The position numbers and the translations under genes were made by a program. DNA of 64,000 bases from Leucoraja ocellata (Eukaryota), in assembly GCA_036785375.1 (NCBI GenBank), contig JAWMAR010000026.1, forward strand, positions 12,090,001 to 12,154,000, in the 5' to 3' direction. The number at the start of each line of letters is the position of its first letter. The first letter of the stretch is position 1. Positions 6,201-63,951 of the stretch are shown here, one piece after another. The notes under the pieces are model-generated. The model made no database searches and was not told the origin of the DNA. It saw only the letters and a list, made by a program, of their open reading frames with translations.

Positions 6201-9200
6201 CCCCCTAGTCCTCACCTTTCACCCCACCAGCCGTCACATACAAAAAGTAATCCTCCGTCAGTTTCGCCACCTCCAACGTGACCCCACCACTCGCCACATC
6301 TTCCCATCTCCCCCCATATCTGCCTTCCGCAAAGACTGCTCCCTCCATAACTCCCTTGTCAACTCTTCCCTTCCCTCTCGGTCCACCCCCTCCCCGGGCA
6401 CTTTCCCTTGCAACCGCAAGAGATGCAACACTTGTCCCTTTACCTCCCCCCTCGACTCCGTTCAAGGACCCAAGCAATCGTTCCAGGTGCGACAGAGGTT
6501 TACCTGCATCTCTTCCAACCTCATCTATTGCGTCCGCTGCTCTAGATGTCAGCAGATCTATATCGGTGAGACCAAGCGGAGGTTGGGCGATCGTTTCGCC
6601 GAACACCTCCACTCGGTCCGCAATAACCAAGCTGATCTCCCGGTGGCTCAGCACTTCAACTCCCCCTCCCACTCCGTCTCCGACCTCTCTGTCCTGGGTC
6701 TCCTCCATGGCCACAGCGAGCAGCACCGGAAATTGGAGGAACAGCACCTCATATTCCGTTTGGGGAGTCTGCACTCCGGGGGCATGAACATCGAATTCTC
6801 CCAATTTTGTTAGTCCTTGCTGTCTCCTCCCCTTCCTCAGCCCCCCTGCTGTCTCCTCCCATCCCCCAGCCATCGGGCTCCTCCTCCTTTTCCCTTTCTT
6901 GTCCCCACCCACCCCCGCCCCCGATCAGTCTGAAGAAGGGTTTCGGCCCGAAACGTTGCCTATTTCCTTCGCTCCATAGATGCTGCTGCACCCGCTGAGT
7001 TTCTCCAGCTTTTTTGTGTAACCTTCCAAATGTTTTTAATGGTTGTGGGACCGGAAAGACAGCAAAATAAGCTCAAACTGTAATGGAAATCTCCAATGTC
7101 CCACATCAATTGGACAGCACTGCCTGAAGGTGCCAAACATAACAGCAGGATAGTTAGTTATCGGCAGCACCAGTTTTTACAGTTTGTGTTAGCGCTGATC
7201 AACGTACCAGTTGGCACACCTTCTCTTGCGTCCTTCTTAAGTCTAATGTTTATTTAGTCAACAGAATTGTCCCTAGTTAGCGGATATCTCCGTCTGCAAG
7301 ATTGGTGCTGCCTGACTCGGGTGCATCCAAATCTAACTGGCATTCCCTATTATGCTTCTTTTCCTGTGTATTTTTACAAAGGGCATTCCTATTCCAGTAA
7401 TATCTTGGGCATATTGAAAAAAACACCTGTGACAGTATACATATCACAACATCTTTAAATCAAGTTCGTCAAACAAGAACAAAGGTTCCAAATGTCTGAA
7501 GTCTTCATCTGAAACATCTTTGTCTGTTTGTCTACAGTTAGCTTATTCTGAACTTTTTCCACATCTGTACCTGATGATGAGAGACAGGAGAAACCTCAAA
7601 GAAAACTAATGTGTTCCATGTTGGAGTTAGTGACTTGACAATCTCTCGAGGCTGGTAATGGTCTATAGAAGACAATTAGATTGAAAAGCATCAGTGCAAG
7701 TCTGCAATTTCTAAAACAAACAGAATATATTTAATATTCTTATCTTATCAAATATAATTTCACATTTACCCAAAATCACATCCATATTCAGAAACAAGAT
7801 TGCACACCCTCATCTTCTTTTGAATCTGCAGGCAAGTGTGTTCCCTTATGACTATTGTAGAGATCATAAAGTTCAAGGTGGTGTCACAGTAGCCGAGGCA
7901 AGTAACTACATTTCATAAATACCACACATGACAATCAGAGTGACAATCAGAGTGTGCTGGAGGTGGAGGGAATGGATGTTTATGATGGTAGATTGATGAA
8001 CCGCCTTATTCTGACTGGTGTCAAACTGCTGGAGAGTTGTCGGACCCACACTAATGAGAGTTCTCTGGTTGGCACTCAATCTGCTGATGTTATCATGGAC
8101 CATGGGTCCATCCAGTCCAACATTTAAATCAAGACTTTTGTATTACTTGTAAAAAGACCCTTGATCAATAATAAAATGTTGCATCTTAATTTTACTGCAT
8201 ATAACTAGGGTAGCTAGTTTACTGCAAATAACATGTGTAGCTACATGACTAGTGTAGCTGGGACATGTTGGCTGGTGTGGGCAAATTGGGCCAAAGGGCC
8301 TGTTTCCACACTGTATTACTCTAAGACTCTATAAATACATGTTCTTTCCACATTTTAATTTTGTCTGCTATGGCAATCATTTTGATTCTGAATTCTACAA
8401 TAAGGAATTTGCCCAAATCTGCAAGGCCTATTTACCCTGCTGAAAACCCATAGTAAATAAGACCCTCAAATTCTATCTGCATCTTTCACAATGACACATA
8501 AATATAGGAAAATCTGAAAATTACAAGAAAAATGAGCAGCTTGTAATATGTTTAACTCAGGAGCTTACATGCTGGGGAAGCATGATGGGAAAAGAGGCCA
8601 ACAGAGTGAAGGGAACTTAAAGATGTTAGGAGAAGCAATAAATAGATGTAATAAGGTGTTTAGATTCCACAGCATAACTAGCCTGTTAACAAAAACATTG
8701 GGGGCTGTAAACCAACTTGAGGGAAAGAAAATTGATCAGGAAATAGTGTTTTTATTGCAAATGGGAAGAATGGTTTTCTAAAAGGGGTCAGAAGATTAAA
8801 GATAACTGGGAATAAAAACAAGATAAAAGGCTACAGAGATATTGATCATTGATGAATTATTTAAAATATATAAAATGAACATGTAACCGTTATGTTGTTA
8901 GAATATAAAATGCAATGGATGCTGTGAATCTTTGAAACACTTTGGGTTTGAATAAACCCACTTGTTTGAGAAACTCACCACTGCTTTATGAACTATTCTT
9001 TATGTCTGTTCCTCTCCGAGCTGTAATTAATAGGACAACTGGGCCCCACGTGAAAGCCAGATTCAGGGCACAGGTAAATCGCAAGATTCCCTCCAACTAT
9101 TCTATGCAGGAGGAACTCAACAGCTCATGAGTAAGAAAAATGAAAAATGCTGCCTGACTCGCCAAGATTCTTCAGCAGTTTGTTTTATGCTTGTATATAC

Positions 9201-12200
9201 ATGGTCATTGGATATTGTCAGGGTATTTATAACATTAATTACTAAGAATTAAAACACGAGCAGAAACTATGTGCACCATAATGATGAATATATGTTAGAC
9301 ATCTTTGGGAGTCACCAGTACATCATGGCTAAAGTGATATAAGTCAGTGATATGTTGCAAATCCTACTCACCATCGGCATCATATAGATCCAAGGTGCCA
9401 CCATCACTTCCTTGCCACTCAGGCACAAGATACAAGATGAAGGCAATTCTCCGCCCTTCTAATTCATCATCATGACAGAGCAACACATCTGCAACAGCAT
9501 TGGGTTCAAAACATCAATATAGTTGCTACCTAAAGGTGTTTAATTAGACTTTCTCAGAAATTATGAAAGAGTACCGAGTATTTCATTTTCAGTTCAACAA
9601 ATGTAACTGTTACATTTACAGAATATTTTAAACGTGTTTTTCAAATCATATAACTTTTGTTAATGGTTTGATTACATCCACCATTCTGTATACTAAGTTA
9701 CTCAAGCCATTGTTGGATTGCATCATATTTTCTCCTGACAACAGAAGTATATTAACTTTTCTTATTTTTCAGCTCTTGGTGCCTGCTATAAAACCAATTG
9801 ATAACAAAGAGCTGCAATTGGTTTGTGATTAAATATGGTGTTAAGGCACCAAGTCTAGACTCACATGAACATTTTGGACATCAGGCAAAATACATGAAAA
9901 TAGCTTTCCAGGAAAATGGAAAAGGAATGCTTTACTGTTTTATCTTCTGAGGATGCCTTTACAAAAGGGGATCAGAAATTTGGCTCTGCAATGCCGTGAA
10001 GAGATGCCTTAAAAAAATGTGTACATTACTGTGTTTCTTAATGTCAACAATGGCACACTGAATTTTGTGGAATGCGTTTTGGTGTTCTTCCAATATGAAA
10101 ATCCTGTCAGCTGGACTTTTAACTGCACTGGTTGGAATAATGACAGCTACCAGTTACTACAAAAGAAGCAGTTTTTGCTTGATCTGATGGTTCACAAGTA
10201 ATATTATTTGAGAGGAGCAACCACACTAAATCTCTCTGTAAAGTTGGTTGTACAATGTTATATTTGCACAGTTTTCTCTATGCACTGCTCACACTGCAAA
10301 TCAATTCTTACCTGTATTGTCAGCATTTTTGCAATGAAAATTGCTTTACCATGAGCATTTGTCTAGCCCTACCATTCCTCTTCATGGATGATCTGAGTCT
10401 GCAGAAAGTGTCTTCTATCTATGGCAATCGCCTTATAGGAAGATTACAGTGGACAACGGAGAAAAACTCTGGTGAACCAGCCAACAATTCTCACTCAACA
10501 AGGATGAAAAGTTAATTGGTTATATACCTCACGATTATACATAAAAGTCAATTTTACCTATGTAGCAATTCAAGCACTTTAAGGTAAGGCAATGTACACA
10601 AATTGTAACATTTCCACATGATGTAGCAATAATCCTACACCTTATCAAGATTTTAGCCATAAAAGTAATATTAGACATAAGCTCTGTGTTTTTCAAAGCA
10701 CACCCATTATATTAAATACCTGCTCCCAATCAACTTTTTAAACATAAGAGACTGTTAGGATTTTCTAATTCAACTACAGTGAAAACCTGAAGACCACCCT
10801 TAAAACAGTCACAAAGTAATTGTATGTAATATTTACACTGTGTAGCACAACACATGATTATCATACATTATATCTAGTGATATCACTGTTCTGATTCACC
10901 AATTATGGTAAAAATGGCATTTATAGAATTCCAATAGTAAAATATTCCTTGGATATCAGCAAACTGAAAGCAAAAATGTTCATTCTATACATCTCGCAAA
11001 GATAATTAAATGTGCATGCCATGCAACATTGCAACTGAAACACCAGATGTACCACATAATACAACATTGGCAGAACCCACAGTAAAATGACATGTAATCA
11101 ATATCTCCCATATTTGCCTTAATAACACCAAATACCTGTGTATTCATACTTAGCGCAAGATATATCAACTGTGCTTTCCAGTTTTACACCTGCAATATCT
11201 GAGAGCCATAACCGAAAATCTTCATAAAGTATTTTCCTGGAGAGAGATAGAGGAAAATCATCTGAACAACTTCATCGATACGATACAATAAAACTTTATT
11301 CATCCCCGGAGAGAAATTGGTCTTGCAATCTCAGCTAAACCCAAGTTTGATCATGAATTCAACCAAATTATAACAGACTAGGTGAAATAAAGTTACAAGA
11401 GAACAATCAGCAGCTCCTAAACTCTGATAAATTATATCATCAATGCACAATAATACTGGAAATATATAGATCATGTGCAAGAAACAAATTGATCAATTTT
11501 CATCAGAACTCAGGCAATTTTGGAGCAATGAAAGTATTACTTTGCAGAGATATACTAGTTAGCTCTGGCAGATAGGGAGAGGTTAAGCAGACTAGGACTT
11601 CATTCCTCACAGGACGATGAGGGGTGATCTTATCAGGCACGTGCCGTCAGGGTAGGCAAGATAGGCACTGCCTACCCTGACTAAAATTATAAAAAGGTAA
11701 TCATTAAATATAAATAGTAAAGGCACGGGAGAATTATGCTTACCTAAGAGATCGATCTCTTAGATAGGCATAATTGTCCCGTGCCTTTCATCCACAGTAC
11801 TCGTAATACGCGAAAGTACGTGCAGCTCACGTGCTGTAGACGCTGCTTCAAATCTTCACGACAAGGGGAGCTGAAAGCAGCTGAAATTCTGCCTTTGCAC
11901 CATAGACTGCGTACTGCCCAAGGGTCAGTGGGCGATGGATAACAGGACAGCGGGCGGTGGAGCTTCCTCCTGTGTCAGCGCGAGTAACCTCAAATGGTCC
12001 CTTGATCGTGCTGACACAGGAGTAAGCTCCAACGCCCGCTGTCCTGTTATCCATCACCCACTGACTTGCTCTGGAGCTGGTCCCCTCACTACATTGAAAG
12101 ACACGGACCGGGCAGCGAATACCATGCAGTGTCACCAAGCGCAGCAAGTGAGGCCATGTCCTGCTCCCGGCGGCAGTCGGAATTTAAGCAATTGTGGAAT

Positions 12201-26423: not shown

Positions 26424-28102
26424 ATGTTGGCGAAATTTCCTGTACGGTGCATGTCGCTATGTGGTATAATTTGGCATGGTGAGTTTAGATATTTGTGTTG
26501 TTCCTGAATTGCAATTCATATTTTACATCTTTTTTTCCTGTTTACATCCGGCAGATGTAGCAAAAATGCCCCTTCCATTTGGGTGCCCTTCTTCCATGAT
26601 TGTTTTGTATTAATCTGCTATTTTTTTCCTTATCCAGTAAATGCAACTAATGTCTTACTTAATTTCGGCAGTTGTGGAAGTATCTTCGAGCTCAGTGTAT
26701 CAATTTCCTAATGATGCAGATGTCCCCATCGGTGCAAACTTCACCATGTTCTGCAAATTTCCCATATCGCAAGATACTATTTCCGTTTTTTGGTGGAGAG
26801 AAGGCATGAGAACATCATTGGAACCAGATACGAGAAAACAATTTCATGTAGGTAGCGGGAGCGGAACATTTGTTCTCCATAATGTCAATGTTGCAGACTC
26901 GGGAACATATTACTGTCAAGCAAAGCACCAGAATCAACACATTGGGAATGGAAGTGGCTGTCTGCTGACTGTGCTCGGTGAGTGTGCATGTTCGAAAATT
27001 AAGAGATTTTCAGTTCTCTGTCATTTACATATAAATTCGTCGTCTATAAAATGTTCCTTGATAAAATGCCGGTGCTAATAAATCCCAAGAAATATAATGG
27101 AATGGACGACTTGAACTGCGTCTTGAACTGAAATGAATAGCTGTGGTAGAAAGTCAGTTTTCCTTTCACCGAGGAAAGGAATGGCGAACAATTTTAGCAA
27201 CTTTCCCCTAGATTAGGCATTGTACGCAACATTAAAGTTGGGATATTCCATATCAGCAACATCACTGATATTCCACTTCAGCTGCTTCCCGTGTTCATTC
27301 ATTGCCCAGGTATCTTTCTGATGCTTCGATATCCAAATCTTATATTTGACTCGGCGCATGACCGTGTTGAACTCTGTACATTCCCATAGTGAAGTATGCA
27401 CCATTGAAAATCTCCATCCCAAGATCTGAACATCAATTGACCAATCAATTTTGAGCACCGAAATGTAATCAATGAACGTAACTACACCCTAACAATGCAC
27501 GTAACCACCCGACTCGAGAAATCTGTGACATCTCTACTTTAATACCATTATTTTCAATTAAGGAAATACCGATAAAGTCCCAAGCGTTAAAGTTAACATA
27601 GAAAGCCAGTCGTTTCCATTCAGAACATTGGCGCCTTTATCCCATATTACCCAAATATTAACCCTCCTTGTATAATGTCTAAAATCGCTCAGTTTGTATA
27701 TCCAGTGTTCAAAAAAATCCATGGTTAACCAACGTAATATATAATTATAATATAGATCACTGAAGTGTAATGGAAACATGCAATATAACTTTTTTTCTTC
27801 TGCTTAAGATTCCCCAACTCCTTTGAACATTGTTTCACTTGAAGATAGTTTGGCTGCTCCAAAACTCGTGTGTAAAACAGATGCGTTTTATCCAGAGACA
27901 TTAGAAATCTTCTGGAGAAAAAATAATGTGGACATTCTAACTGGCATTGAAACCGTGAAATACAGGAATGCGGAACGATTGTATGAAGCTTCCAGCTTTT
28001 TGGAAATAGCGCAGCCTGCCCGGGGTCAAGATGTGTACACCTGTTTAGTATCGCATATCTCACTTAAGGTACCGGCCAGTTTCACCTACATCGTCGAACC
28101 AG
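26424..28102 (+). CDS. IgSF receptor gene A (leader-VJ-C1; 3' exons not visible)
   Basis: Exons 26424-26478 (MLAKFPVRCMSLCGIIWH), 26672-26977 (V-type), 27809-28102 (C1), all phase 1 with AG/GT; assembly gap follows. Confidence 0.88.
26672..26977 (+). CDS. Gene A VJ-type Ig domain exon
   Basis: TMFC...WWR...DSGTYYC...IGNGSGCLLTVL; CAG acceptor, GTGAG donor. Confidence 0.92.
27809..28102 (+). CDS. Gene A C1-set Ig domain exon
   Basis: LVCKTDAFYPETLEIFW...YEASSFLEI...YTCLVSHISL. Confidence 0.92.
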
Positions 28103-28258: not shown

Positions 28259-28458
28259 NNNNNNNNNNNNNNNNNNNNNNNNNNNNNNNNNNNNNNNNNN
28301 NNNNNNNNNNNNNNNNNNNNNNNNNNNNNNNNNNNNNNNNNNNNNNNNNNNNNNNNNNNNNNNNNNNNNNNNNNNNNNNNNNNNNNNNNNNNNNNNNNNN
28401 NNNNNNNNNNNNNNNNNNNNNNNNNNNNNNNNNNNNNNNNNNNNNNNNNNNNNNNNNN
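28259..28458. other. Assembly gap (200 N)
   Basis: Run of N. Confidence 1.
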
Positions 28459-29100
28459 TTTTCCGGTTAAGAACCTCCATCTCATTTTATTCGCCATGCA
28501 ATTTCAAAGACTCTCTGGATAAAGGGCAGACGTTTTACACACGAGGTTACGGAGGAGAAATCCTTCAACCGGAACAAATTTTAAGGAAGTTGGTGGAGCT
28601 GAAACCAAATGAAGGCCTTCTCCACATTTGGATGAGCACGTTGTCTCCTTTCTCCCGCCTAATTGTATAAACTACTTATATTAGTTGGTCGAGAAATGTT
28701 TTTTTAACCGTCTGCGTTGACGTTATATTATAAATTCTTGCATGGTGGGTAATAAGATGACGTTAATTTTGTGCAATGCACAAACAGGTTGAATCTAAGA
28801 ACTGATACCATGCTTGTAAATGAAACCAACGTGACGAAGACATTAATTGGCATCCAACTACTGTGCGACACGTAGTAAATATTTGTTAAAAAGAGCCGTT
28901 CAATCACTGTTTATGTGTCCGATGGATAAGAGCTTAGTAGACTGTGGCGTCGTATAATTGTTCGACGTTCATCGCGCTTAACGAGTTTTAAATTGTATAA
29001 CATTGTATAATTGTATTGTATATTAAATGTATTTCACGGTTCGGAAGATATTATCTAATTCAGTGTATTGATATATTTTATATAATAACTACTATATAAT

Positions 29101-44734: not shown

Positions 44735-44794
44735 TTAGATAGCGATGTTTCCTTGGAGTTGGAAAGTCAGCTTGTCATCTCCGCCTCGTTTGGT
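44735..44794 (-). CDS. Gene B terminal exon (frameshifted)
   Basis: TKRGGDDKLTFQLQGNIAI*; homologous to gene C terminal exon, with a 17-bp deletion. Confidence 0.8.
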   Translation of the reverse strand, partial: TKRGGDDKLTFQLQGNIAI

Positions 44795-47700
44795 CTGTGA
44801 AATAAATTCAATATTACCTGTTAGCGCATCGTACAGTGACTTGGGAAAACAATCGATTTTTCAATACAATTGGAATATAACCAACAATTATCATTTCCAG
44901 ATTGCAGATAACGTATAAGAGTTTATGTTCATATGATTTAGAAGCTCCAGTCTTCTGCGGAGCCTTTCTTGCTCTAGCGAACAGTGTAACACAAAGGTTA
45001 CACAAAAAAGCTGGAGAAACTCAGCGGGTGCAGCAGCATCTATGGAGCAAAGGAAATAGGCAACGTTTCGGGCCGAAACCCTTCTTCAGACTGATCGGGG
45101 GCGGGGGTGGGTGAGGACAAGAAAGGGAAAAGGAGGAGGAGCCCGAAGGCTGGGGGATGGGAGGAGACAGCAGGGGGGCTGAGGAAGGGGAGGAGACAGC
45201 AAAGACTAACAACATTGGGAGAATTCGATGTTCATGCCCCCGGGGTGCAGACTCCCCAAACGGAATATGAGGTGCTGTTCCTCCAATTTCCGGTGCTGCT
45301 CGCTGTGGCCATGGAGGAGACCCAGGACAGAGAGGTCGGAGATGGAGTGGGAGGGGGAGTTGAAGTGCTGAGCCACCGGGAGGTCAGCTTGGTTATTGCG
45401 GACCGAGCGGAGGTGTTCGGCGAAACGATCGCCCAACCTCCGCTTGGTCTCACCGATATAGATCTGCTGACATCTAGAGCAGCGGACGCAATAGATGAGG
45501 TTGGAAGAGATGCAGGTAAACCTCTGTCGCACCTGGAACGATTAAACACAAGTGTAACACAAATATTCATGAAACATTTTCAATTTTATTCTCTCCACAT
45601 TGCCATCAACACTTCGCTCACATAGGTTATACCACTTGCCTAAACACGGGACATTTTAAATGTCTAATTAGCCTATCACCCCTCACGTGATTCGGGATGT
45701 GCGAAGAATTCGGAGCACCTCGGGAAACCCGCGAGGATGTAACAAATAACGTTAAAACATCACACTGACAGCACATACGGCCAGGATGCGTTTTACCTTG
45801 TGGCTGGATATACGAGGACAAGCCATAATATCTCTCTCACTGTGTGATCTTCGTTAGATAATATGGAAATACTGCAAAGAGTGCTTGTCATATGTCCCAG
45901 ATAGAACTCTGAAATTCTTACTTGCAGCAGCACAACAGAATAAAACATAGTACTCTGTAAATAATATAATAAACCTCTCTGAGGTCCAGAGCCATCCTGC
46001 CACCTGCCCCTTATTGTGGATTTCCTGAATTCAGATTTCAATCTGTTCCGAATCATTGTCAGAATTTCTCATATTTCGTGGCGCTGGATATGCCCGCTGG
46101 GTGGAAAAGCATGTTGGCTGTTCCCTATCTTGTCTGTTTCTTAATTTCCCATTAATTATGGACAGCATTCTACATTAAACCCGGGAAAAGAGATACAGGG
46201 ATGGCGTCGTGCAGCGGAATGTGTTGTTCGGCTCTATCTGGTTTCAACGTTGCAATTGGAAATTCGCCATTACGGCTTTTCCACAGTCGGACAAGGTCAA
46301 CATTATGTTCACGTTACTTCATAATCAATAGAAATAATTTCCTTTAAGCTGATATTTCCTTGGAATTATTTTCGTGCAAATACTTTTCCCTTACCTCGGC
46401 ATAGACAACATTCTCTTCCTTTCGTCGATATTTGGTCATTTTTTTGCCCTCACTCAAGTTTAGTGTTGCGTAGGCAGAGGCATCTTCACTTGACGCTTGC
46501 CGAACCTATTAGAAAGTGACATTCAACACAGTTAGCAGAGTGTCTGATGTAGTTCTTTAAAGAGTGAGTCTGAAACATAAACATACAGAATGAATGCAAA
46601 ATCGGGGCACGATACCATTTGAACTGCATTCAATTATATTTCTCAGAATGTCATTCCCGAGAGGATTCAGTGCCAGTGTTTAACTTGTTTATTAATTTTG
46701 TAGCTTGCGATTCGTTTGGAACTATGAGACTGCAGGTTTAGTCGCTGCGCCCCTTCCAATATTAGAGGTGACAGGCAAAATTGTTTCCTTCTGCGCTGCA
46801 ATGTTCTAAAATTATATGGAATGAAACTGATATATTCTCTGCTGATCGTATAATTTCTGTACTGGTCCATCCCTCTTGGAAACACGAAGAATAGCTTCAC
46901 CTACCGGTTCTACGCTACGACTTGCTTCCACGCAGTTTGCATTAATACCTACATGAAAAAAAAGAAATCTCGAATAACATTTTAATGTCAGGAAAATGTA
47001 AATTACGCATTAGATTATAATCACATCTACTGCCCTTGAAGGCAGCGACAATCCCGTATACGTATCGCAGTATCACCGCCACAGTGTAGTGTGTTGTGCA
47101 TTTCCTTCATATACACCATCCGCGTTAGATCAGCACAACCGGCGGAAGCGAAGGTCTAGGCCAAATAACTCATCCTTCACATTTTGACGTTAAAGCAAGT
47201 CAACAATGCGAAAGGGCAGGGGAAATAATTGTATTTTAACTTACAACTAATAACTGGTATTGCTTTGGATTCTTGTTTCAATACTGCTCAGAATGCACCA
47301 ACCGCTTTTCTATCAACGGGTGTGTGAAATGGAAAATTATGCAAGGTTCTTACCTCGTTGTGCCTTTAATACGAATCTTGTCAAAATTATAAGCAGAACT
47401 ACAAATGACAGTCCGCCCACGACACATCCGAGAATTAGAGTTTTGTCCGTGGTTTCTGGGGTCTCTGGATATGGCGAAAAATGAGAACAGTGAAGCATAA
47501 ATACATACACAGGGACCGGTAGACAAGAAGGCAGAGCAATCGTTCAATATTTTCGGCACAAATATGTTATGACTGCCACATGGCACGCATTGTAAGGTAA
47601 TGACGAATTTATAGAACTGATCGCATTATACGGCGGCTCTTTGCTGAGGTTTGGTTAGTAAGTTAAGATGAGTATTAATTTTCATTTTACAAAACTACGC

Positions 47701-50060
47701 CCGGTAGTTTGACAACGGTTTAAAAAGTCAGAATGCTATATTCTATATTCTGGATCTGACACCCTGGACCCGCCGCCACAGGTTCCAGTAAATATGAAAA
47801 GGAACTGGATTTTTGTGTTTGCACAACTATCTAATTGTATTTGTAAATAGACACAAAAGAGCTGGAGTAACTCAGCGCGACAGGCAACATCTCTGGAGAG
47901 AAGGAATGGGAGACGATTTGGATCGAGACCCTTGTTCAGATTGTATTTCTCGGCAGGCTGAAGTCTACGTTAAATGCCTCCCGGCTTACCTTGCTCGACA
48001 ATGTAGCTGAAACTGGCAGGGGCTGTAAGAGATACGTGTGATACCAGGCAGGTGTAAACAGTTTTGCCTGGAGCAGGCTGCGTATCGTGCAAAAAACTGG
48101 AAGCCTCATAAAGTCCATCCGCTGTTCTGTTTCTCACGGTTTCTATGCCGGTCAAAATCTCCACGTTGTTTCTTTGCCAGATTACGTCTAATTCCATTGG
48201 ATAAAACGCAGCCGTTTTACACACGAGTTGCGGCAAATGCGGTGCACTTCCTTCAATAGCAACAATTTTCAATGGAGTTGGGGGAGCTGGAACAATTAAA
48301 AAAAAAGCGTGAAGCTGCAAAATATATTTTATTTCAATGAACATAATTGTCGCTGAACCGTTGCTGCTGCCTCCTGTTATCCGTGTGGTTGTTTGTTGAG
48401 TTTATAATTTTGTTATACATTATTTTACGGAGGATATCAAGGTAAGTAGTGTAATTGAAACAAAGCATGAATGGAGTGCTGCCTAGCGCGATTATTATGA
48501 AGGAATGTGACACAGGTAGGTATTGCTTGGTAAGATTCCGTGACAGTGCTTTATGTTGAATTCAAAATCACGCTTTTCTTCTGAACATTTGCTCTTTCTT
48601 ATGTGCATGTGGTAGTTACAGAAAATGGACTGCACTGAATGGCAGAAGTACATCGGCGACAACAACTGCTTTTCTCGAAAAGCACGCAAGGATGAACGGA
48701 GCAAACTCTGTTTCTCATTTCATATATTTTATTAACAAGACATTAACGACCATGGTTCCATTTGTGCTGGAGCCACTGTTAGTAATATTTAGCGAGCGGG
48801 AGAGTTAATTGTACCTTTTTTTGTCAATTCATTGCGTAATCACCTCGTTTCTGTTTAAGCATATTTATTTTCCTTCATTTGTGTAATAACATCTCATTGT
48901 ACTATAATTATTAATTAATAAAGATATATTACATTTTACTCCCTGTGCCATATAAATGATTACCAAGCAAAGAAATAATATCGGAGAATTTCAGTTGTAG
49001 TTCTTTTTTTTTCTTTTTTCATTCCATGAACTTTCCTGGAGACAGTGAATGTGAAAACCAAATTATCCACCTCAAAACTGTGAGATCAATTTCTCCTCCG
49101 TTTTTAGTTGATGTGAAAGTTTGTCGGCGTGGGAAATTTGCAACTTTCTGGAAATTCGGAGTAACGTGAATTTGGTTGGGTATTTGAAAAGCTGGAGGTC
49201 AAAATATAAAGTGACCTGCCAATTTACAAGAGCCATAACCAGGGTAACGTCACTATGACTTTTTTAACATAACCCGGAGTAAATAAAACAAAACTATAAC
49301 AGAACTCTCGCTGAACGTATATTGACCGACGGATGGAATATTTTTCAGTATTTTCCCTTTATTTCAGATTTCCATCTCGGAAGTAACTATTAAAATTATA
49401 GAGCTAGATAAGATTAATATTTCCTCCACCAGCAAGCTTTTGTAACATTGCAACAGAAGAACATACCCCACTACTCGTAACAAAGACACTTACTTAACAC
49501 AATTAGCTGGGAGCCAGTTCCATTGCCGATAAGTTGCAGTTGATATTTCACTCGACAGTAATACATCCCGAAGTCATCGACACTCACATTCAGCAAAGTA
49601 AATGTACTGCTTCCCTTGTCTACTTTGAATTGTTTTCTGCTGTCCGCTTCCATAAATGTCTTCTCGTCCCCTCTCCACCAAGAAACGTCAGCGGTTTCTT
49701 TTAATATCGGAAATTTGCAGAACATGGAATCACTTCTGCCCCTGGAGACACTCAGGATTGCGGGGAATTGTTCCACTTTGCTCGAAGTTGCTTTTGTCAG
49801 TGGCAGAAATAAGTAAATATGATGAAAACATTTGTACATACAGCACCAAGAAAAAGAGCCAATGGATACACAAATACAAAACAATTAGGAAATAATGGTT
49901 AGCCAATTGTAGAAACGTTGTAAATTTAATTTACTGTGGCATACTAGTGTAAAATATTGTCAAATATGATTTGCTTAGCGAAATCGGTACAGAAACTAAG
50001 CATACCTTGACAAAGCAAAGCAAGAAGACCCATGTACCGAACCATTGCTTTCACCGGCAT
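44735..50060 (-). CDS. IgSF receptor gene B (leader-VJ-C1-TM-ITIM tail, truncated C-terminus), ~321 aa
   Basis: Exons 50060-50006, 49790-49494, 48286-47990, 47455-47354 (TM), 46948-46905, 46505-46395, 44794-44735; phases consistent and exon sizes parallel gene C. Confidence 0.88.
44996..45550 (-). mobile_element. Penelope-like 3' terminal fragment in gene B last intron
   Basis: Near-identical to 5215-5762; GIY-YIG ORF 45206-45532; 13-bp TSD AGTGTAACACAAA at 44983-44995 and 45551-45563. Confidence 0.92.
46395..46505 (-). CDS. Gene B cytoplasmic exon 2 (ITIM SAYATL)
   Basis: VRQASSEDASAYATLNLSEGKKMTKYRRKEENVVYAE; 111 bp. Confidence 0.88.
46905..46948 (-). CDS. Gene B cytoplasmic exon 1 (44 bp)
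   Basis: GINANCVEASRSVEP; same size and donor (CCG|GTAGGTGAA) as gene C exon 59155-59112. Confidence 0.8.
47354..47455 (-). CDS. Gene B transmembrane exon
   Basis: ETTDKTLILGCVVGGLSFVVLLIILTRFVLKAQR; CAG/GTAAG. Confidence 0.85.
47990..48286 (-). CDS. Gene B C1-set exon
   Basis: LVCKTAAFYPMELDVIW...YTCLVSHVSL. Confidence 0.92.
49494..49790 (-). CDS. Gene B VJ-type Ig domain exon
   Basis: SMFC...WWR...DFGMYYC...IGNGTGSQLIVL; GTAAG donor; AAG acceptor inferred. Confidence 0.88.
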
Positions 50061-56515: not shown

Positions 56516-56653
56516 TCAGTTACACGTCTTTTTAGAAGTATTCACATCAGCGTACACCGTGTATTTGTTGTTCTGTTTGGATGCTGATGTTTTCTTGGGG
56601 TTGTGATGTTGCACAGTTGCGTAGGTCAGCTTGTCATGTCCACCTCTTTTAGT
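56516..56653 (-). CDS. Gene C terminal exon (ITIM LTYATV, ITSM TVYADV)
   Basis: TKRGGHDKLTYATVQHHNPKKTSASKQNNKYTVYADVNTSKKTCN*. Confidence 0.87.
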   Translation of the reverse strand, partial: TKRGGHDKLTYATVQHHNPKKTSASKQNNKYTVYADVNTSKKTCN

Positions 56654-59600
56654 CTGCGAAAGTAATTAATGATCGGTGATTAGGCAATCATTCAGTGACG
56701 AATTTGAGCATACTGCTTTAAAATAATATTTTATGCAACCCATCAGTTGTTATTTTTACAATGGTATTGATTTGCAGATTTATTTTTGGCTATACCTTTC
56801 TGCTTGATATTGAGTTTAAACGCGAGGAGCTGTTCTTGTCCCACAAAATAATTATTTTCTTTTTCTTTTATGTCAACTTCGACGTAATTACGAAAGTTAG
56901 GAGAATTGGTGAATGCTCAAAATTGTATCCGCAGTATTAAATATTTGGCATAATACGAAGCCCCTTTTAAAGTGTATTTGTGGGATTGGCGGGAATCCAT
57001 TTTGCCTGTCGCGCCCAAGAGGTGGTTCGCAGACTGAAGCTACCGGTACCTCTCCAATAGACACCGCGGCTCGCGGCTTCATCAGCGGCACCGAAATGCA
57101 ATAGAATATAAGTTGGTACTACTTCCTATGGCTCTGCGTCCCCAGCTTTTGATACGAGTCCCCTATTCGGTGGATAATTTGAACGGCTTGTTTACTCTCT
57201 TTTCCCAGGCCATTGTCTTGCATTTGTATTTAGTTTCGCCCTGATTATGAGAACTGGATAGGTTTGTGTGTTCCTAGCTTCCCACCCTTTATTTCTTCAC
57301 ATACAATTTACATTTGAATTTAAACCCGAATAAGGAAAGGAAAATTATATTTATGCTCTGATGAGCAGCGGGCGATAGGCTTTACTTAAATGAAGATTTG
57401 CCATTGTGCACTTATATTTTCCCTGCAGTTTGGGAAAAGCAACTACATTTGGAACAATGCTCATTCCATAACTTAATTACGCTGTCCAAGAGCATTACCT
57501 GTGAATAGGCGACATGTTGTTCTTCTTGTAGACCATTTGAAAATCCTTTGCTCTCGCTTAAATTCAGTGTAGCATAGGCAGCGGTATGTTCAATTGGTGC
57601 TTGTCTCACCTATTGGAAAAGTACATTTAATACTGCGGGTGACCAGGCTTATATAGCTGATAGGACACTAGAACTGTATCTGGGGCTGAAAATCGATGCA
57701 CGCGGGATATAGAGGAATAGATTAACATTTCACTTGCTTTCAATGATATTACCAACGATGTCATTTCAAGGAAGGGGGTGGACAATGGTGTTGGTCGAGT
57801 TTCCTGGCGATAAACATCACCAATAATTTGCACTGGGCCAACCACATTAATGCTAACGCCATGAAAGCACACCATTGCCTCGACTTTCCCAGAGGACCAA
57901 GGAAAGTTGGACGGTCTCCAAAGTCTCTTCCCAAATTCCACAGCTGCACTGTCGAAATAATTATATGGGGATGAATCCCAAATTGGTTTAGCGACAGCTT
58001 TGCCCAGGACCTTAAGAAACGCAGGAACCTGTGATTGCAACCCAGCCAACGACGTAAACAAGCTTCCGTCATTCTCTCCTCTTCCCTCGGCGGACAGAAT
58101 ACACAATAGCTTGAAATCGCCTCGTGTAAGATTTAAAAACGGCTTTATACTCGATGTTATCAAGTTACTAAACAGGCGTCGCGCAAGCTAATTGTGCAAT
58201 CCTGATCTGCGATTTACCTCGTTCTGGTCCTTGAGTTTTTAAAATGTGCACTTTCTCTTTAGCTCTAACACAATATTTTGCATCCTGTGTCATTTCCCTT
58301 TTTGCACTTGGGTATGGTATGATTGTACCCATATATGGTATACAGTTTCCGGATTGCACGCAAAATAAAGTTTATAATTTAATCTCGGTGTACATGACAA
58401 TAATTAACCAGTGCCAATACGAATATCAGTCTTTTGCAGATTTTGGAGATTTCTTCTTCTAAGCATTGCAGAGTGGAAGATGCATTTGTGGGATTCCATT
58501 TAGCAGCCAGCAGCTGCTAAGCAGCTGGGAAGCAGTTCCGATGCCATGTAGGCCATATCCGGTTAAATTGCCTTTCGTTAAGGATCGAAGCCAAAACTGC
58601 AATTAACACGTTAAAGAACGGCACAAGAAAGCAAATTAAATTCTCGACAAAGGTTCTTTTCATTTTTATTTTAATTACCGTGCTTTGAAATTCAATATAA
58701 TTTTTGCCTTAAAATTGCCTTGGGTTGATTGTTGCACTTACTCTCCCATTGGTCAGCAACCCACAATCTCTTCGTAGTCTGATATTTGATACGTTCTCAC
58801 TATCTAAAATTATATTTTTAAGTGTTCCTGCCACCCGAACTAATAAAAGCTCATATTTTCATCCTAAACATCACCTTTCACTTTAGAATAAATTAGGATA
58901 TGATCTGGCATGGAATTGTCAAAAGATGTTGAAGCAGATACAACAGGAATGTTCAAATTATTAGTGGATGTATACTTGACGTAACCTGAAAAATAAATAA
59001 TGGGTTCATCCTGCCCTAGAGTATTCCACGATACTATAGAATAAAACTGATTTATAATATTTCTGCTACGAATAATCCCTATTTTGAAACAAGAGGAGAC
59101 ATTTCACCTACCGGCTCCCCGTTCGGACGTATTCCTACAGAGGTTACGTTATGGCCTAGAGGAATGAAACATGAGTTACATAAAAACAACTTGAATTGTA
59201 AAGATTGATCTGTAGATTTTGACATTAATCTTCTCATTTTAATCAAATTTGCTGCAGAAAATAAGAACGATTGCATTTTTAAATATCAGATGGTGCTCAG
59301 CAGCACCAATTGTCACAATTATAACAATACAACGCATCTTGTACTCTTTCGCGATGTTGCGCCCACTGGACCTAAATTTTAACTGAAACTTTAAAATTGA
59401 AATGGTTTATGAGGAACCGTGTCCATGTCGAAACAGCAATGTAATGTAAACATATGGAGATGTTTGGTTTTGCTCATTGCCACAGAAAACCACAGTTGTT
59501 TTTTCCTCAAAATTGTAATCTTCCATTGCATTAATTATCAATCACACTGGATTTGAAGAATTCCTTATATTTGAAAATATATGCATAGGTGATAATTGAA

Positions 59601-62600
59601 TACATCCAATTCCAAGCTGAAATAATTGAATTTGAAGATCCATCATATTATCACACACATATATCAAAGCCGGCTTCAGAACTCTCTTTACATGTCCATC
59701 TACGTTTCCTTTTCTCCTCTGTGAGCAAACACCATTGACATATCCATTCTCGTTTTAACCATAGAAATGATTATTGTATGATTATTATCAAGATTCTTAC
59801 CGTGCCATATCTTTAAACTGAGTCTCATCACGATTATAATCAGAACTAAAATTACTGATCCACCTACTGCATATACGATAATCTGTTTGCGACCAATTCC
59901 TGGTGGATTAACAGAAAATTTAGAAACTGTAAAGAATTTATACATTTCAGAACAATTATACAAACGGCAGTCAACAAAGTAAATCATTTCGTAGGTGCAT
60001 TTTAATACCCACATCGGAAAGTTTGGAAGGTATATCATGAGGCACCAGATGGAAGTTAGTAATGGAATCCACAGGACAAGCAATTGCCGTTGTATTGTGC
60101 CCACGCGCGGAGAGCTGCTTACTGACGTTAAACGGAATTTAGGCTTTATCTTCATATATTTCACCAGACAGTAGATATATACATATAACCATATAACAAT
60201 TACAGCACGGAAACAGGCCATCTCGGCCCTACAAGTCCGTGCCGAACAACTTTTCTTCCCCTTAGTCCCACCTGCCTGCACTCACACCATAACCCTCCAT
60301 TCCCTTCTCATCCATATGCCTATCCAATTTATTTTTAAATGATGCCAATGAACCTACCTCCACCACTTCCACTGGAAGCTCATTCCACACCGCTACCACT
60401 CTCTGAGTAAAGAAGTTCCCCCTCATATTACCCCTAAACTTCTGTCCCTTAATTCTGAAGTCATGTCCCCTTGTTTGAATCTTCCCTATTCTCAAAGGGA
60501 AAAGCTTGTCCACATCAACTCTGTCTATCCCTCTCATCATTTTAAAGACCTCTATCAAGTTCCCCCTTAACCTTCTGCGCTCCAGAGAATAAAGACCTAA
60601 CTTATTTAACCTATCTCTGTAACTTAGTTGTTGAAACCCAGGCAACATTCTAGTAAATCTCCTCTGCACTCTCTCTATTTTGTTGACATCCTTCCTATAA
60701 TTGGGCGACCAAAATTGTACACCATACTCCAGATTTGGTCTCACCAATGCCTTGTACAATTTTAACATTACACCCCAGCTTCTATACTCATTGCTCTGAT
60801 TTATAAACGCTAGCATCCCAGGACGTTTTTGCTCATTACAATCATTATATCAATTCAGTTTGTCAATTGATCTCACACGGATCTCCTTACAAGAACTGAT
60901 GAAGTACAATTCATTTTAAACAGCATGCAAGTGTTGCTTTCATGCGAATAAATGCGAGCCACATTTAACCTTGTACGGAAAGCTGTCCAGTTATTAATCT
61001 GATCGAATTTGATCTACCGCCCCAATATCATGTGTAACTGGCTCCAGTCTTACCTTGGCCCAGGGTATAACTGAAACTGGCCGCCACCTTCAGGGAGACA
61101 TGTGATACCAGACAGGTGTAAATATCTTTGTCCTCCCCAGGCTGCGTTATTTCCAAAGAACTAGTAGCCACAAACAATCCTTCTTCGCTCGGTTTTTTCA
61201 CAGTTTCGATTCCAGTGCGAATTTCCTCGTTATTTCTTAGCCAGAATATTTCTAATTTCTCCGGATAAAAGGCGCCAGTTTTGCACACAAGTTTCCGTGG
61301 AGATCCAAGTCCTTCAGCAGGAACAATTGTCAAGGGAGTTGGGGGATCTTAAGCAAAGAAAAAAAAATATCGGGTGTTCGCTTTCCATTTCATTGTAAAT
61401 ATTTACATTTTATCTCGCCACCGAGTCGTATTTGTCAAGACCAAATTATTTAATATTTAAACTTCCCAGTTTGTCGTTCATTTATACTCCCTTTCCTAGC
61501 GGACAACCGGACGAACTCCGCCAAGATACAAAGAGGGTGAATTTAAGGAGTGCCAACAGAATTTAAGGAGTTCCAAAATAAACTCTGCTCTGAATGGACG
61601 TTCCCCGGTATCGCGCGAAAGTTTTTGCCAGAAGCCTGCCGTGATTATTTAAAAGTGGCCATGTTCGGATCATTCATATGTTGCAAAAGAAATGGAGCCA
61701 TCATAATCGAAATATAACAGATTCGTATAGTGTGGTGACAGGAAGCGGTTATACATGAAGATTAATGATTAATCCCGTTAGCACTTTAAGTAGTATATGG
61801 ATTAAATCTTCTCACCCTGGTCAAAAAGACCCACTTCAACATTTAATCACTACTCTACTCTACTCAACTCACTCCGACATGCGGGAGATAACCACTTATC
61901 ACGTGTTTGCGCAGTAATCAACCAGAACCAGAACCAGATATGGGTTTGAAATGCCGATCACAACCATTTACCTGCATGTGAACCAAGTGCTGGAACACCT
62001 ACCTTTCTCGCGCATTGAATGCTTTTATTAAAACACCGTGGTTTCAATTACAAGCAATTTACGAGCGCACTTATTCAATATCAGTATGTAGGAAAGAACT
62101 GCAGATGCTGGTTTAAACCGAATATATGTTGGAGTAACTCAGCGGGACAGGCAACATCTCTTCGGAGAACGAATGGGTGACGTTTCGGATCGAGGTTTGA
62201 AGAAGGGTATCGACCCCAAACGTCACTCATTCCTTCTACCCAGAGATGCTGCCTGCCCCGCTGAGTTACTCCAGCATTTTGTGTCTCTATACAAATCAGT
62301 TCCATCTGTTGTGCCAACTTGGCGACAGTGAATCGACAACGTTAGATCGGCGTTAATGATGGTAGCTTGCAGAAGCCAAACGATGGAAAATAACAAGCTC
62401 TGTTTCTCGCTGTGCTGATTCTACTCATTTACGTCTGCACGTAAAAGGTCCTATATTTGGCATTTATTAACGCGAACTCCTTCCGTACGAGCTGCAGCCG
62501 GTGTCTAACTGGACGGGGAGTTAATTGTTGGGTTGCTTTGTCGGTTTATTACAAATCTTTAGAAAGCTTGACTTAATTCACTTAATCATGATAATCTTTA

Positions 62601-63951
62601 ATGATGAAATAAATGTTACTGATTATTCCCGGACTTTAAATAATTTCATTTGAGATGTTGTTTACTTCTTTTTTCCCCCGTACGGTGCCACATTGGTTGA
62701 ATAGACTGACGTTATGCCTGACAAAATTAGTATCAAGCGATTTCAAAAAAAAGAAAAAAGATTTCATTGAAGTCAGCTTGGAATCAGCAGCGATGAGTCC
62801 CACATGTTGGAAGACCAAGGTCCTTGGGTTGCAGCAGCACATTGGTCTTATGAGGTTCCAAAGCTGTCGATGTAGAATAGAGGCATGACAGACTCTACCA
62901 TCGACGTATTAAAATTGCTCCTACTCTATTTTCTTAGTGATGAGAAACCTGGACATCACACTCCAGCCACTCAAACTAACAGGAATATCATTTAAATATC
63001 TCATCGCAAAACATTTCTAACCACACCTCAGAATGAATTCCTTCCATCTCAGCATTTACCCGTTCTTAGCGATAAATCCATCTGGGAGATTGGCTTAAAA
63101 TTCGGGACCGCTAAATGAATGGGCTGCGCCAATTCATAGCGGCAATGAAAAGGAGTCTCGCAAAGTATCGTACAATGAACAAAATAACCCTCAATACCCA
63201 CGCGTCCCACAAGTGCTACTCGACCTGCTGGTTATGTCCATTGTGCTTTGTTTTATTTTGAATTACTGGTCCCTGTAATTTAAAATTGTTATTACTGGAT
63301 ATTTATCAACAGGCGATTTTTCATATTATCCTCGCGACTAGACTTTACAAATGACATAGAACTGAAAATTGTTTATTTCCCTAACACACACACTCACCAA
63401 ATACGGTGATTCGGCTGCCACTTCCATTTCTGATAACCTGCTGCTGGAACTTTACTTGACAGTAATACAGGCCGGAGTCAGCTACACGCACATGTTGGAG
63501 AGTAAATGTTCCGCTTCCAGAATCTATGGTAAATTGTTTTCTATTGTCCGGTTCAAGGAAAGTCTTCATGCCGCCCCTCCACCAATTAACGCTAATATTG
63601 CCTTTCGATATTGGAAATGTGCAATACATGGTAGCATGTTCACCGCCGCCAACGTCCAAGTTGACAGGGAATTGGGACACTCGGGTCGGATAGACTTCGG
63701 TAGCTGTCGGGACACAAGCAAGAACAATTGAAACAGTTGTAAACACTGGACAGAGAAAACAGGAACCAACTGTCGAAAAGCACGAAACAACTATAAACCC
63801 GCGAGGGCCTAATAGATGAACCTAATAGCTCGAAACCAGGTCCGAATTTTCGTAAAATAATACTTAGACCAGAAATGGCACACATTTTAACTATACCCTG
63901 CGTTAGTATGACCAGAAGAGCCATGGACCAAACTCTAACTTTCACCGACAT
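56516..63951 (-). CDS. IgSF receptor gene C (leader-VJ-C1-TM-tail with 4 motif tyrosines), ~348 aa, apparently intact
   Basis: Exons 63951-63897, 63703-63398, 61347-61054, 59899-59801 (TM), 59155-59112, 57609-57499, 56653-56516; total 1047 nt, all AG/GT, in frame to TGA. Confidence 0.92.
57499..57609 (-). CDS. Gene C cytoplasmic exon 2
   Basis: VRQAPIEHTAAYATLNLSESKGFSNGLQEEQHVAYSQ; 111 bp. Confidence 0.88.
59112..59155 (-). CDS. Gene C cytoplasmic exon 1 (44 bp)
   Basis: GHNVTSVGIRPNGEP. Confidence 0.8.
59801..59899 (-). CDS. Gene C transmembrane exon
   Basis: GIGRKQIIVYAVGGSVILVLIIIVMRLSLKIWH. Confidence 0.87.
60184..60817 (-). mobile_element. CR1/HER1-type LINE 3' fragment in gene C intron 3
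   Basis: LYKALVRPNLEYGVQFWSP...FFTQRVVAVWNELP. Confidence 0.92.
61054..61347 (-). CDS. Gene C C1-set exon
   Basis: LVCKTGAFYPEKLEIFW...YTCLVSHVSL. Confidence 0.92.
62080..62290. mobile_element. Palindromic Penelope-derived short element
   Basis: GGAGTAACTCAGCGG...CCGCTGAGTTACTCC inverted arms; related copies at ~16520-16925, ~20410-20585, ~47850-47942. Confidence 0.7.
63398..63703 (-). CDS. Gene C VJ-type Ig domain exon
   Basis: ATMYC...WWR...DSGLYYC...IRNGSGSRITVF. Confidence 0.92.

Follow-up and report, generated by a model that had tools for sequence, protein, structure and literature searches.

A window of genomic DNA from the skate Leucoraja ocellata (the whole stretch that was analysed, 64,000 nucleotides) contains three V exons whose B- and F-strand cysteines lie unusually close together. 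This raises the question of what kind of immunoglobulin domain these exons encode, what kind of protein carries it, and whether its compactness bears on the origin of the VNAR domains of cartilaginous fish. We addressed these questions mainly through the third gene of the window (gene 3). This gene carries a V-J domain with 53 residues between the cysteines and a predicted lack of the C′ and C″ strands, borne on what is probably an inhibitory V-C1-TM receptor that belongs to a likely paired family of sharks and rays.

A compact V-J exon

The V domain of gene 3 is encoded by a single 306-nt exon located between AG and GT, in phase 1-1. Its B- and F-strand cysteines are separated by 53 residues, and the identical count in the other two V exons agrees with what a sequence-only reading of the window had reported for all three genes. 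The DxGxYYC motif and the J-like strand, which that reading had described as retained, are both found in the gene 3 exon. As a control, we parsed other V-set loci of the same genome, which we take from their motifs to be TCR V, light-chain VJ, CD300-like, and nectin-like sequences. The 26 that were readable (of 30; 4 were not parsed) have 67–72 residues between their cysteines, consistent with the proposal that the spacing in the window lies below that of typical V-set domains. The shortfall sits after the C-strand tryptophan, with a Cys-Trp distance of 12 and a Trp-Cys distance of 40 in the window V domains, compared with 13 and 55 in a light-chain exon (L051). Both cysteines, the tryptophan, and the DxGxYxC motif are invariant in all 21 aligned rows. 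Across the genome there are 28 matches of this type, 27 of which read as 53 residues while the remaining one carries a stop codon, and a spacing that recurs in this number of matches is not due to chance.

A search for recombination signal sequences (RSS) at all three V exons yielded none that is credible, the best candidate having two heptamer and three nonamer mismatches. Germline-joined light-chain-like VJ exons also occur elsewhere in this genome in large clusters (C384, C531, C4817, and C4271; L051, L055, L064, L072, and L080), and such clusters are known for skates.

Organization of the three receptor genes

Our hand-built model of gene 3 comprises eight exons, all with GT-AG boundaries, and an open frame of 393 amino acids (Table 1). 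V and J share one exon, which is followed by a single C1 exon and then by the transmembrane (TM) exon. The C1-set domain, second in the protein, contains two cysteines, and its best sequence matches in the PDB are beta2m/MR1, IgM C-mu, and UrIg2. Taken together, the predicted cytoplasmic exons encode two ITIM-consensus motifs, one ITSM-like motif, and two further motif-like tyrosines. RNA reads from four runs of a relative (80% likeness) fall nearly all on repeats and essentially never on V, C1, or TM exons, and are uninformative on expression either way. Almost all of these mapped reads are accounted for by recent LINE/SINE copies, some of them 98–99% alike (window positions 5211-7026, 44994-45543, 60175-60830, and 62084-62318).

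Table 1. Features of the receptor genes and their flank in the window
Feature	Position	Strand	Evidence or detail
Gene 3, leader exon, split, phase 1, ATG to GT	63897..63951	-	78% match to gene 2 leader
Gene 3, germline-joined V-J exon, 53 residues between cysteines	63398..63703	-	Pfam V-set 37 bits, I-set 31 bits; AlphaFold2
Gene 3, C1-set exon	61054..61347	-	Pfam C1-set E 3e-12
Gene 3, stalk and TM exon, hydrophobic stretch uncharged	59801..59926	-	gene model
Gene 3, cytoplasmic exon 1 (predicted)	59108..59155	-	homologous exon in gene 2; identical copy in L093
Gene 3, cytoplasmic exon 2 (predicted), weak donor, ITIM LIYSKV formed across junction	58882..58985	-	gene model
Gene 3, cytoplasmic exon 3, two more motif-like tyrosines	57499..57609	-	gene model
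Gene 3, last exon: ITIM LTYATV, ITSM-like TVYADV, stop	56516..56653	-	homologous tails in other species
Gene 2	44735..50060	-	leader 50060-50006, V 49790-49494, C1 48286-47990, TM 47464-47354
Gene 2, tail exons	46948-46901, 46505-46395, 44794-44735	-	gene model
Gene 1	26424..28102	+	leader 26424-26478, V 26672-26977, C1 27809-28102
Truncated C1 exon fragment	28507..28608	-	tblastn E 2e-6
OGFOD1 exon (flanking gene, synteny anchor, outside receptor)	11137..11235	-	PDB 4nhx, E 5e-11

The last exon of gene 2 is 17 bp shorter than its copy on contig C578 (L092:5493-5619), and the resulting frame shift removes the ITIM and the ITSM-like motif; gene 2 is possibly a non-signalling or decaying allele. 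Gene 1 is broken off by an assembly gap (28259-28458), and no TM exon was found for it. Genes 2 and 3 lie on a piece of approximately 37 kb (window 28459-64000) that is bounded by two 200-N gaps, the second of them in L037. This piece shares about 97% identity with the end of C578, has the opposite orientation to gene 1, and may be a misplaced or flipped haplotig.

Predicted fold and structural neighbours

An AlphaFold2 model of the gene 3 V domain (21-sequence alignment, pLDDT 92.8, pTM 0.84) contains strands A, A′, B, C, D, E, and F and a split G strand. The C′ and C″ strands are absent from the model, with residues 43 to 54 predicted to form no strand, as expected from the suggestion, made from the letters of the window, that the CDR2 region is missing. 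The G strand is broken at G93-S94-G95, and the domain therefore has in the model the V-type bulge whose absence that suggestion had taken as the mark of an ordinary I- or C2-set domain. The FG loop is long (11 residues from Cys81 to the bulge), and no asparagine follows YxC. Across the family, the GxG of the J-like strand occurs in 37 of 48 V domains. The model of a Leucoraja relative with 58 residues between the cysteines adopts the same V fold with one bridge residue at C′, and continues into a C1 domain, a TM helix, and a disordered tail.

Structure searches returned NCAM2 Ig1 (Z 14.5, rmsd 2.0, 93 residues aligned), VNARs (Z 14.2–14.4, with the skate VNAR 8ht3 at 14.4 and 14.8), and TCR V-alpha (Z 14.1–14.3), all tied within 1 Z unit; NKp30 reached Z 12.5 in the wide search, and CD79b is the top Foldseek match. 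This comparison concerns the top-ranked rows, and families beyond these rows stay possible. Sequence E-values are likewise similar for VNAR, CD79a, and light chains (about 6-9e-5), and over the aligned span CD79a is 2 residues shorter, and VNAR 7 residues longer, than the window V domain. According to the accessible parts of two papers, PD-L2 and sponge SAML also lack C″ (PMC11926128), and VNAR has been described as intermediate to I-set and V-set (PMC8470474). Because of these structural ties and precedents, we regard the window V domain, as modelled, as a V/I intermediate lacking C′ and C″ and of a kind that has arisen several times.

The view that this is a minimal V/I-set intermediate in a germline receptor is therefore upheld by the modelled fold, the lack of a credible RSS, and the C1, TM, and tail exons downstream. 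On two other points the sequence-only reading fared less evenly. It had set against itself the existence of a known family of equal shortness, and to a degree such families exist, with CD79a shorter still and with PD-L2 and SAML lacking C″ in the available text of the source cited above. It had also looked to structural comparison for a likeness to VNAR; the fold without C′ and C″ is predicted confidently, but a likeness specific to VNAR is not seen, since NCAM2 Ig1 and TCR V-alpha score equally well.

An N-x-S/T sequon occupies the J-region Phe position in 28 of the 48 family V domains, where a glycan would likely hinder VH-VL-type pairing.

A family of shark and ray receptors

Searching the genome with the V exon gave 53 matches in total: 28 with the 53-residue spacing (the 53 type), 22 longer ones on contig C26, one on C105, and two that are CD28H-like. 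The 53-type matches are distributed among C26 (3), C578 (11), and C1270 (14). C578 and C1270 lead into one and the same flank and probably represent two haplotypes, and the haploid count of the 53 type is therefore nearer 11–17. There is one C1 per V throughout the array, and the paralogues in this genome are 97–100% identical to Leucoraja proteins over their TM segments.

Profile searches revealed relatives in 14 shark and ray genera, and in two such searches 22 of 29 and 21 of 27 matches were named elasmobranch V-C1 proteins. Members from one species share one chromosome-scale contig. Their automatic names include SIRPA-like, tapasin-related or tapasin-like, Ig lambda-like, NCR3LG1-like (B7-H6-like), MHC II-like, PD-L1-like, and nitr1d. 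Among 48 family V domains, a set from which near-duplicates were removed and which lacks the V domain of P0189 because the extraction pattern did not catch it, the cysteine spacing is 58 in 23, 55 in 12, 56 in 3, and 53 in 10; all ten domains with 53 come from this skate genome.

In the V tree these 48 rows form one family clade (support 99/98), and the 53 type forms a clade of its own (99/96) nested beside a group with spacings of 58, 55, and 56; the alignment has 100 columns, too few for deep branches, and includes no VNAR row. As the 53 type is nested within a family whose commonest spacing is 58, compactness is old and family-wide, with 53 representing a further trim. Of the five residues lost from 58 to 53, the BC loop and the C-D link account for two each and the DE turn for one. 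On this sequence comparison, the 53 type is derived, and all members of its clade come from this skate.

Other protein searches were less productive. Two word-indexed searches returned no V-C1 members from chimaeras or bony vertebrates, which is weak evidence of absence, and a single-sequence search for longer relatives gave none among 104 candidates. Titin-like multi-Ig proteins dominate the HMMER matches among 1.84 billion representative proteins, and Atlas matches fall in generic V-set, antigen-receptor, PD-1, and TIGIT clusters alone. Three multi-V proteins from the HMMER search (spacing 59–62) fall outside the family in the tree. The unnamed multi-V receptors P0079, P0111, and P0149, with spacings of 59–62 and J-like strands, include one with an ITIM tail and one with a TM arginine, and possibly represent another paired family.

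Two further observations concern the variety of family members. A WW motif preceding the TM segment marks a conserved subfamily (L031/L126, on C26 near 12.07-12.08 Mb; P0007, P0010, P0011, and P0016), whose tails, as seen in the proteins of other species, bear CxxC and a basic C-terminal patch with no ITIM or Arg; this subfamily may have a distinct, conserved role. Database models with more domains, P0180 from Hemiscyllium (VJ-C1-VJ-C1) and P0001 from Amblyraja (VJ-C1-C1), are either real duplications or gene-model fusions.

Probable activating and inhibitory siblings

According to the part of a review available to us, paired receptors typically have homogenised ligand-binding domains on opposite tails (PMC3210942). 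Near-identical ectodomains on ITIM and charged-TM genes are found here too. On C26, the V exons L045 and L044 are 100% identical, yet the next TM exon carries an Arg in one case (L139), and in the other it is uncharged and leads on to an ITIM exon (L142). Likewise, L039 (with Arg) and L040 (no Arg, with ITIM exons in L132) are 97% identical in their V exons, and the Leucoraja match of L039 has a 13-residue tail. In each case the Arg-TM exon is assigned to its V exon by order and distance only. Arg-TM proteins occur in Leucoraja, Hemitrygon, Pristis, Mobula, Scyliorhinus, Heptranchias, and Chiloscyllium, one of them (P0184) with a loose ITIM-like match, and multi-ITIM members are also present in other sharks and rays. 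The TM arginine of NKp30 and NKp46 couples these receptors to CD3-zeta/FcR-gamma, as stated in the accessible portion of PMC6514059.

Within the 53-type array, gene-3-like ectodomains are joined to differing TM and tail exons. The lone Arg-TM exon found there (L088) comes after a C1 remnant and may not be used. Some genes of the array have tandem pairs of TM exons (L087:7146-8445, L088:6974-8425, and L089:7997-8882), with a C1 remnant between them in L087 and L088, and the second TM of L088 has Arg where that of L087 has Cys. Such tandem exons could permit alternative splicing that switches signalling, or could be remnants of crossover.

Variation among 13 gene-3-like V exons is enriched in the positions of CDR1 and CDR3 (9 of 17 variable, versus 15 of 79 elsewhere; p 0.006), although these rows include probable alleles and are not independent, and loops vary more in any Ig domain. 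With pN/pS at 0.67 among the same exons, positive selection is not demonstrated.

The family likely works in the manner of the SIRP, NITR, or LILR pairs. The membrane-distal BC, DE, and FG loops of the V domain would bind a cell-surface ligand, which would be either a self marker or a pathogen's imitation of such a marker. Tyrosines of the gene 3 tail would become phosphorylated, recruit SHP-1/SHP-2, and damp the leukocyte, while Arg-TM siblings would pair with FcR-gamma or CD3-zeta to give activation. The similarity of paired ectodomains would be maintained by gene conversion or by unequal crossover. Shortness of the V domain is a trait of the family (58 residues), was carried further to 53 in one skate clade, and is likely convergent with VNAR.

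Genomic location and possible kinship with SIRP

The gene 3 array adjoins OGFOD1, which lies in the first part of the window (exons at 0.8-15.4 kb, minus strand). On C578 the array is bordered by NUDT21, and the 53-type copies on C578 and C1270 share this flank. Beyond NUDT21 is an exon, presumably of AMFR, with a weak Pfam match (E 0.004) and no PDB match. The array thus appears to sit between OGFOD1 and NUDT21 in this skate. At human 16q13, OGFOD1, NUDT21, and AMFR are neighbours, the first two being adjacent, and human 16q is paralogous to chromosome 20, which bears SIRP. This setting makes an origin as a sister of SIRP attractive, though the V tree neither demonstrates nor rejects it.

Such kinship, in which the family would be an elasmobranch branch or whole-genome-duplication sister of SIRP, with a secondarily shortened V domain binding CD47 or a CD47-like marker, is a possibility we nonetheless view with some doubt; it is compatible with the paired-receptor explanation. 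Both families combine a non-rearranging VJ-type domain with C1-set domain(s), a tandem cluster, and ITIM and charged-TM members, and many members are labelled SIRPA-like by NCBI. SIRP-gamma can be aligned across the two domains (Z 13.4, rmsd 5.5, 205 residues), and a tree in which the family and SIRP are forced into one clade is not rejected (p-AU 0.25). However, the V domain of a lungfish SIRPB2-like protein has 65 residues between its cysteines, compared with 53–58 here, and falls apart from the family in free trees; its hhalign score (51.9) is below that of a skate CD28H-like exon (71.8). In addition, SIRP-alpha has two C1 domains where the skate receptors have one, the TM charge of SIRP is Lys rather than Arg, and the flanks here are OGFOD1 and NUDT21. 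The SIRP locus lies on the NSFL1C side; none of five SEP-domain matches fell on C26, although the contigs are not whole chromosomes, and none of 150 scored matches from a cadherin search of the genome did so. Searching this genome with the lungfish SIRPB2-like sequence gave no match, which is not proof of absence.

Comparison with other immunoglobulin-superfamily proteins

It is unlikely that these proteins are B7-like V-C1 ligands of the B7-H6 or HHLA2 type, displayed for recognition by NK or T cells. In the Leucoraja model the V-C1 tandem does superpose on B7-H6 (193 residues, rmsd 3.5, Z 14.6), several members are automatically named NCR3LG1-like or PD-L1-like, and the subfamily of P0007, P0010, and P0011 lacks both ITIM and Arg; yet that Z score is matched by many unrelated C1 and V domains, the J-like GxG strand is widespread in the family, and multi-ITIM tails with Arg-TM partners speak for signalling receptors.

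We consider it quite improbable that the domain is left over from the ancestor of VNAR, or that it shares the loss of C′ and C″ with VNAR by descent. Its relevance to VNAR origins, as put forward in the sequence-only reading, is not sustained, given the ties of NCAM Ig1 and TCR V-alpha with VNAR and the derivation of 53 from 58. Both VNAR and the compact-V family occur in cartilaginous fish, VNARs hold many of the top structural ranks, and the first antigen receptor has been speculated to be a single-domain VJ like VNAR in the text available from PMC12227049. The two also share the predicted loss of C″ and CDR2, an A/A′ split, a bulged G strand, and a Z of about 14. The equal ranks of NCAM2 Ig1 and TCR V-alpha and the uniform sequence E-values nevertheless argue against a special relationship, as does the shortness of the skate domain relative to VNAR. 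Neither IgNAR hallmark was present in gene 3, which has no V split by RSS and has one C1 followed by TM, whereas the IgNAR heavy chain has three or five C1 domains (PMC7916673, accessible part). The compact-V receptor is instead germline-joined, with a short, fixed CDR3-like loop, one C1, TM, and ITIMs, and TCR V segments lie on a different contig (C471) from its gene. Two pattern searches for an IgNAR exon in this genome returned nothing usable. The compact V domain is likely convergent with VNAR, in an analysis whose tree contains no VNAR sequence. As a further, apparently independent instance of CDR2 loss, the short V domain suggests that CDR2 is readily lost and that its loss tells us little about the ancestry of VNAR.

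That the family represents the NITRs of cartilaginous fish is very improbable. Like the NITRs of ray-finned fish, these are clustered germline single-exon VJ receptors with inhibitory and activating forms, and one Leucoraja member is named "novel immune-type receptor 1d" by NCBI. The NITR V domain is much longer, and in the tree a NITR-like V with 70 residues falls among Ig light chains. What defines NITRs is an I domain that bears six cysteines and a J motif, and their homologues have been reported lacking in cartilaginous fish (bioRxiv 2021.06.11.448072, in the part available); we reject NITR identity on the ground that a two-cysteine C1 replaces the defining six-cysteine domain.

The least probable alternative is an ordinary I-set adhesion domain: the Pfam I-set score approaches the V-set score and exceeds it in gene 2, ROBO, titin, and NCAM top the sequence and wide structure lists, and I-set domains also have no C″, a short C′-D link, and an A/A′ split, but the ROBO and titin ranks are summed multi-domain scores, the domain has a G bulge and a long FG loop and lacks the short FG loop with Asn following YxC that marks the I-set (PMC11926128), and a C1 domain and ITIM tail come after it.

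Four other identities were considered. Members of the CD28 family consist of a single V followed by TM, with a PPP or EIP motif in most (PMC11599192, as far as its available text goes); CD28 family identity (CD28H, PD-1) is rejected, as a C1 is present and neither motif occurs in 48 FG/G segments. The skate CD28H-like V exons (EIP motif; L049:4077-4391 and L050:4518-4826) are also short, with 58–60 residues between cysteines, and are the nearest outgroup in one tree (99/90) but not in a reduced tree. NKp30 (NCR3) has one VJ domain and an Arg-TM with no C domain (PMC6514059, same portion); the single-exon VJ and TM arginine recall the Arg-TM members, but the compact-V family adds a C1 and is multigenic, and NKp30 identity is rejected since a C1 is present and the gene 3 TM is uncharged. 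Three C1 domains are present in UrIg and nine in nurse-shark UrIg2, both encoded in the MHC/antigen-receptor complex (PMC12227049, part seen), and the presence of one C1 per V across the array rejects this identity as well. The non-rearranging VJ with C1 and the split leader are nonetheless shared with UrIg/UrIg2, and VJ-C1 genes have been noted in tetrapods as well (PMC10751288). CD79a and CD79b share with the skate receptors a short V-like immune domain. They differ in having a single domain, an ITAM tail, and no multigene cluster.

Implications

The 53-residue spacing alone is a modest structural curiosity, and the family in which it occurs is of greater interest. The sequence-only reading did not reach this wider context of a likely paired, multigene receptor family. 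We found no description of this family in the open-access literature, a search that left supplements and some relevant papers outside its scope, so that an earlier mention is possible; the accessible parts of PMC7916673 and PMC6795676 do not mention it. In databases its members are concealed under at least seven unrelated automatic names. The compact-V family matches the two-domain VJ-C1 precursor drawn in Figure 2 of PMC12227049, a paper that, in the part available, describes intact single-exon VJ genes as sought-after models of the gene split by the RAG transposon. We tentatively propose, as a reading that could well be wrong, that it is an undescribed, chromosome-clustered paired VJ-C1 system with a VNAR-sized V domain, a counterpart of KIR, SIRP, and NITR, probably a genome-duplication sister of SIRP in a 16q13-syntenic block, and a living example of that precursor.

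Little is known about diversified paired receptors of the NK or myeloid type in cartilaginous fish. This family offers a minimal VJ-C1-TM layout, with at least two dozen skate genes that include what look like activating and inhibitory twins, and it supplies concrete reagents for asking how shark leukocytes separate self from non-self.
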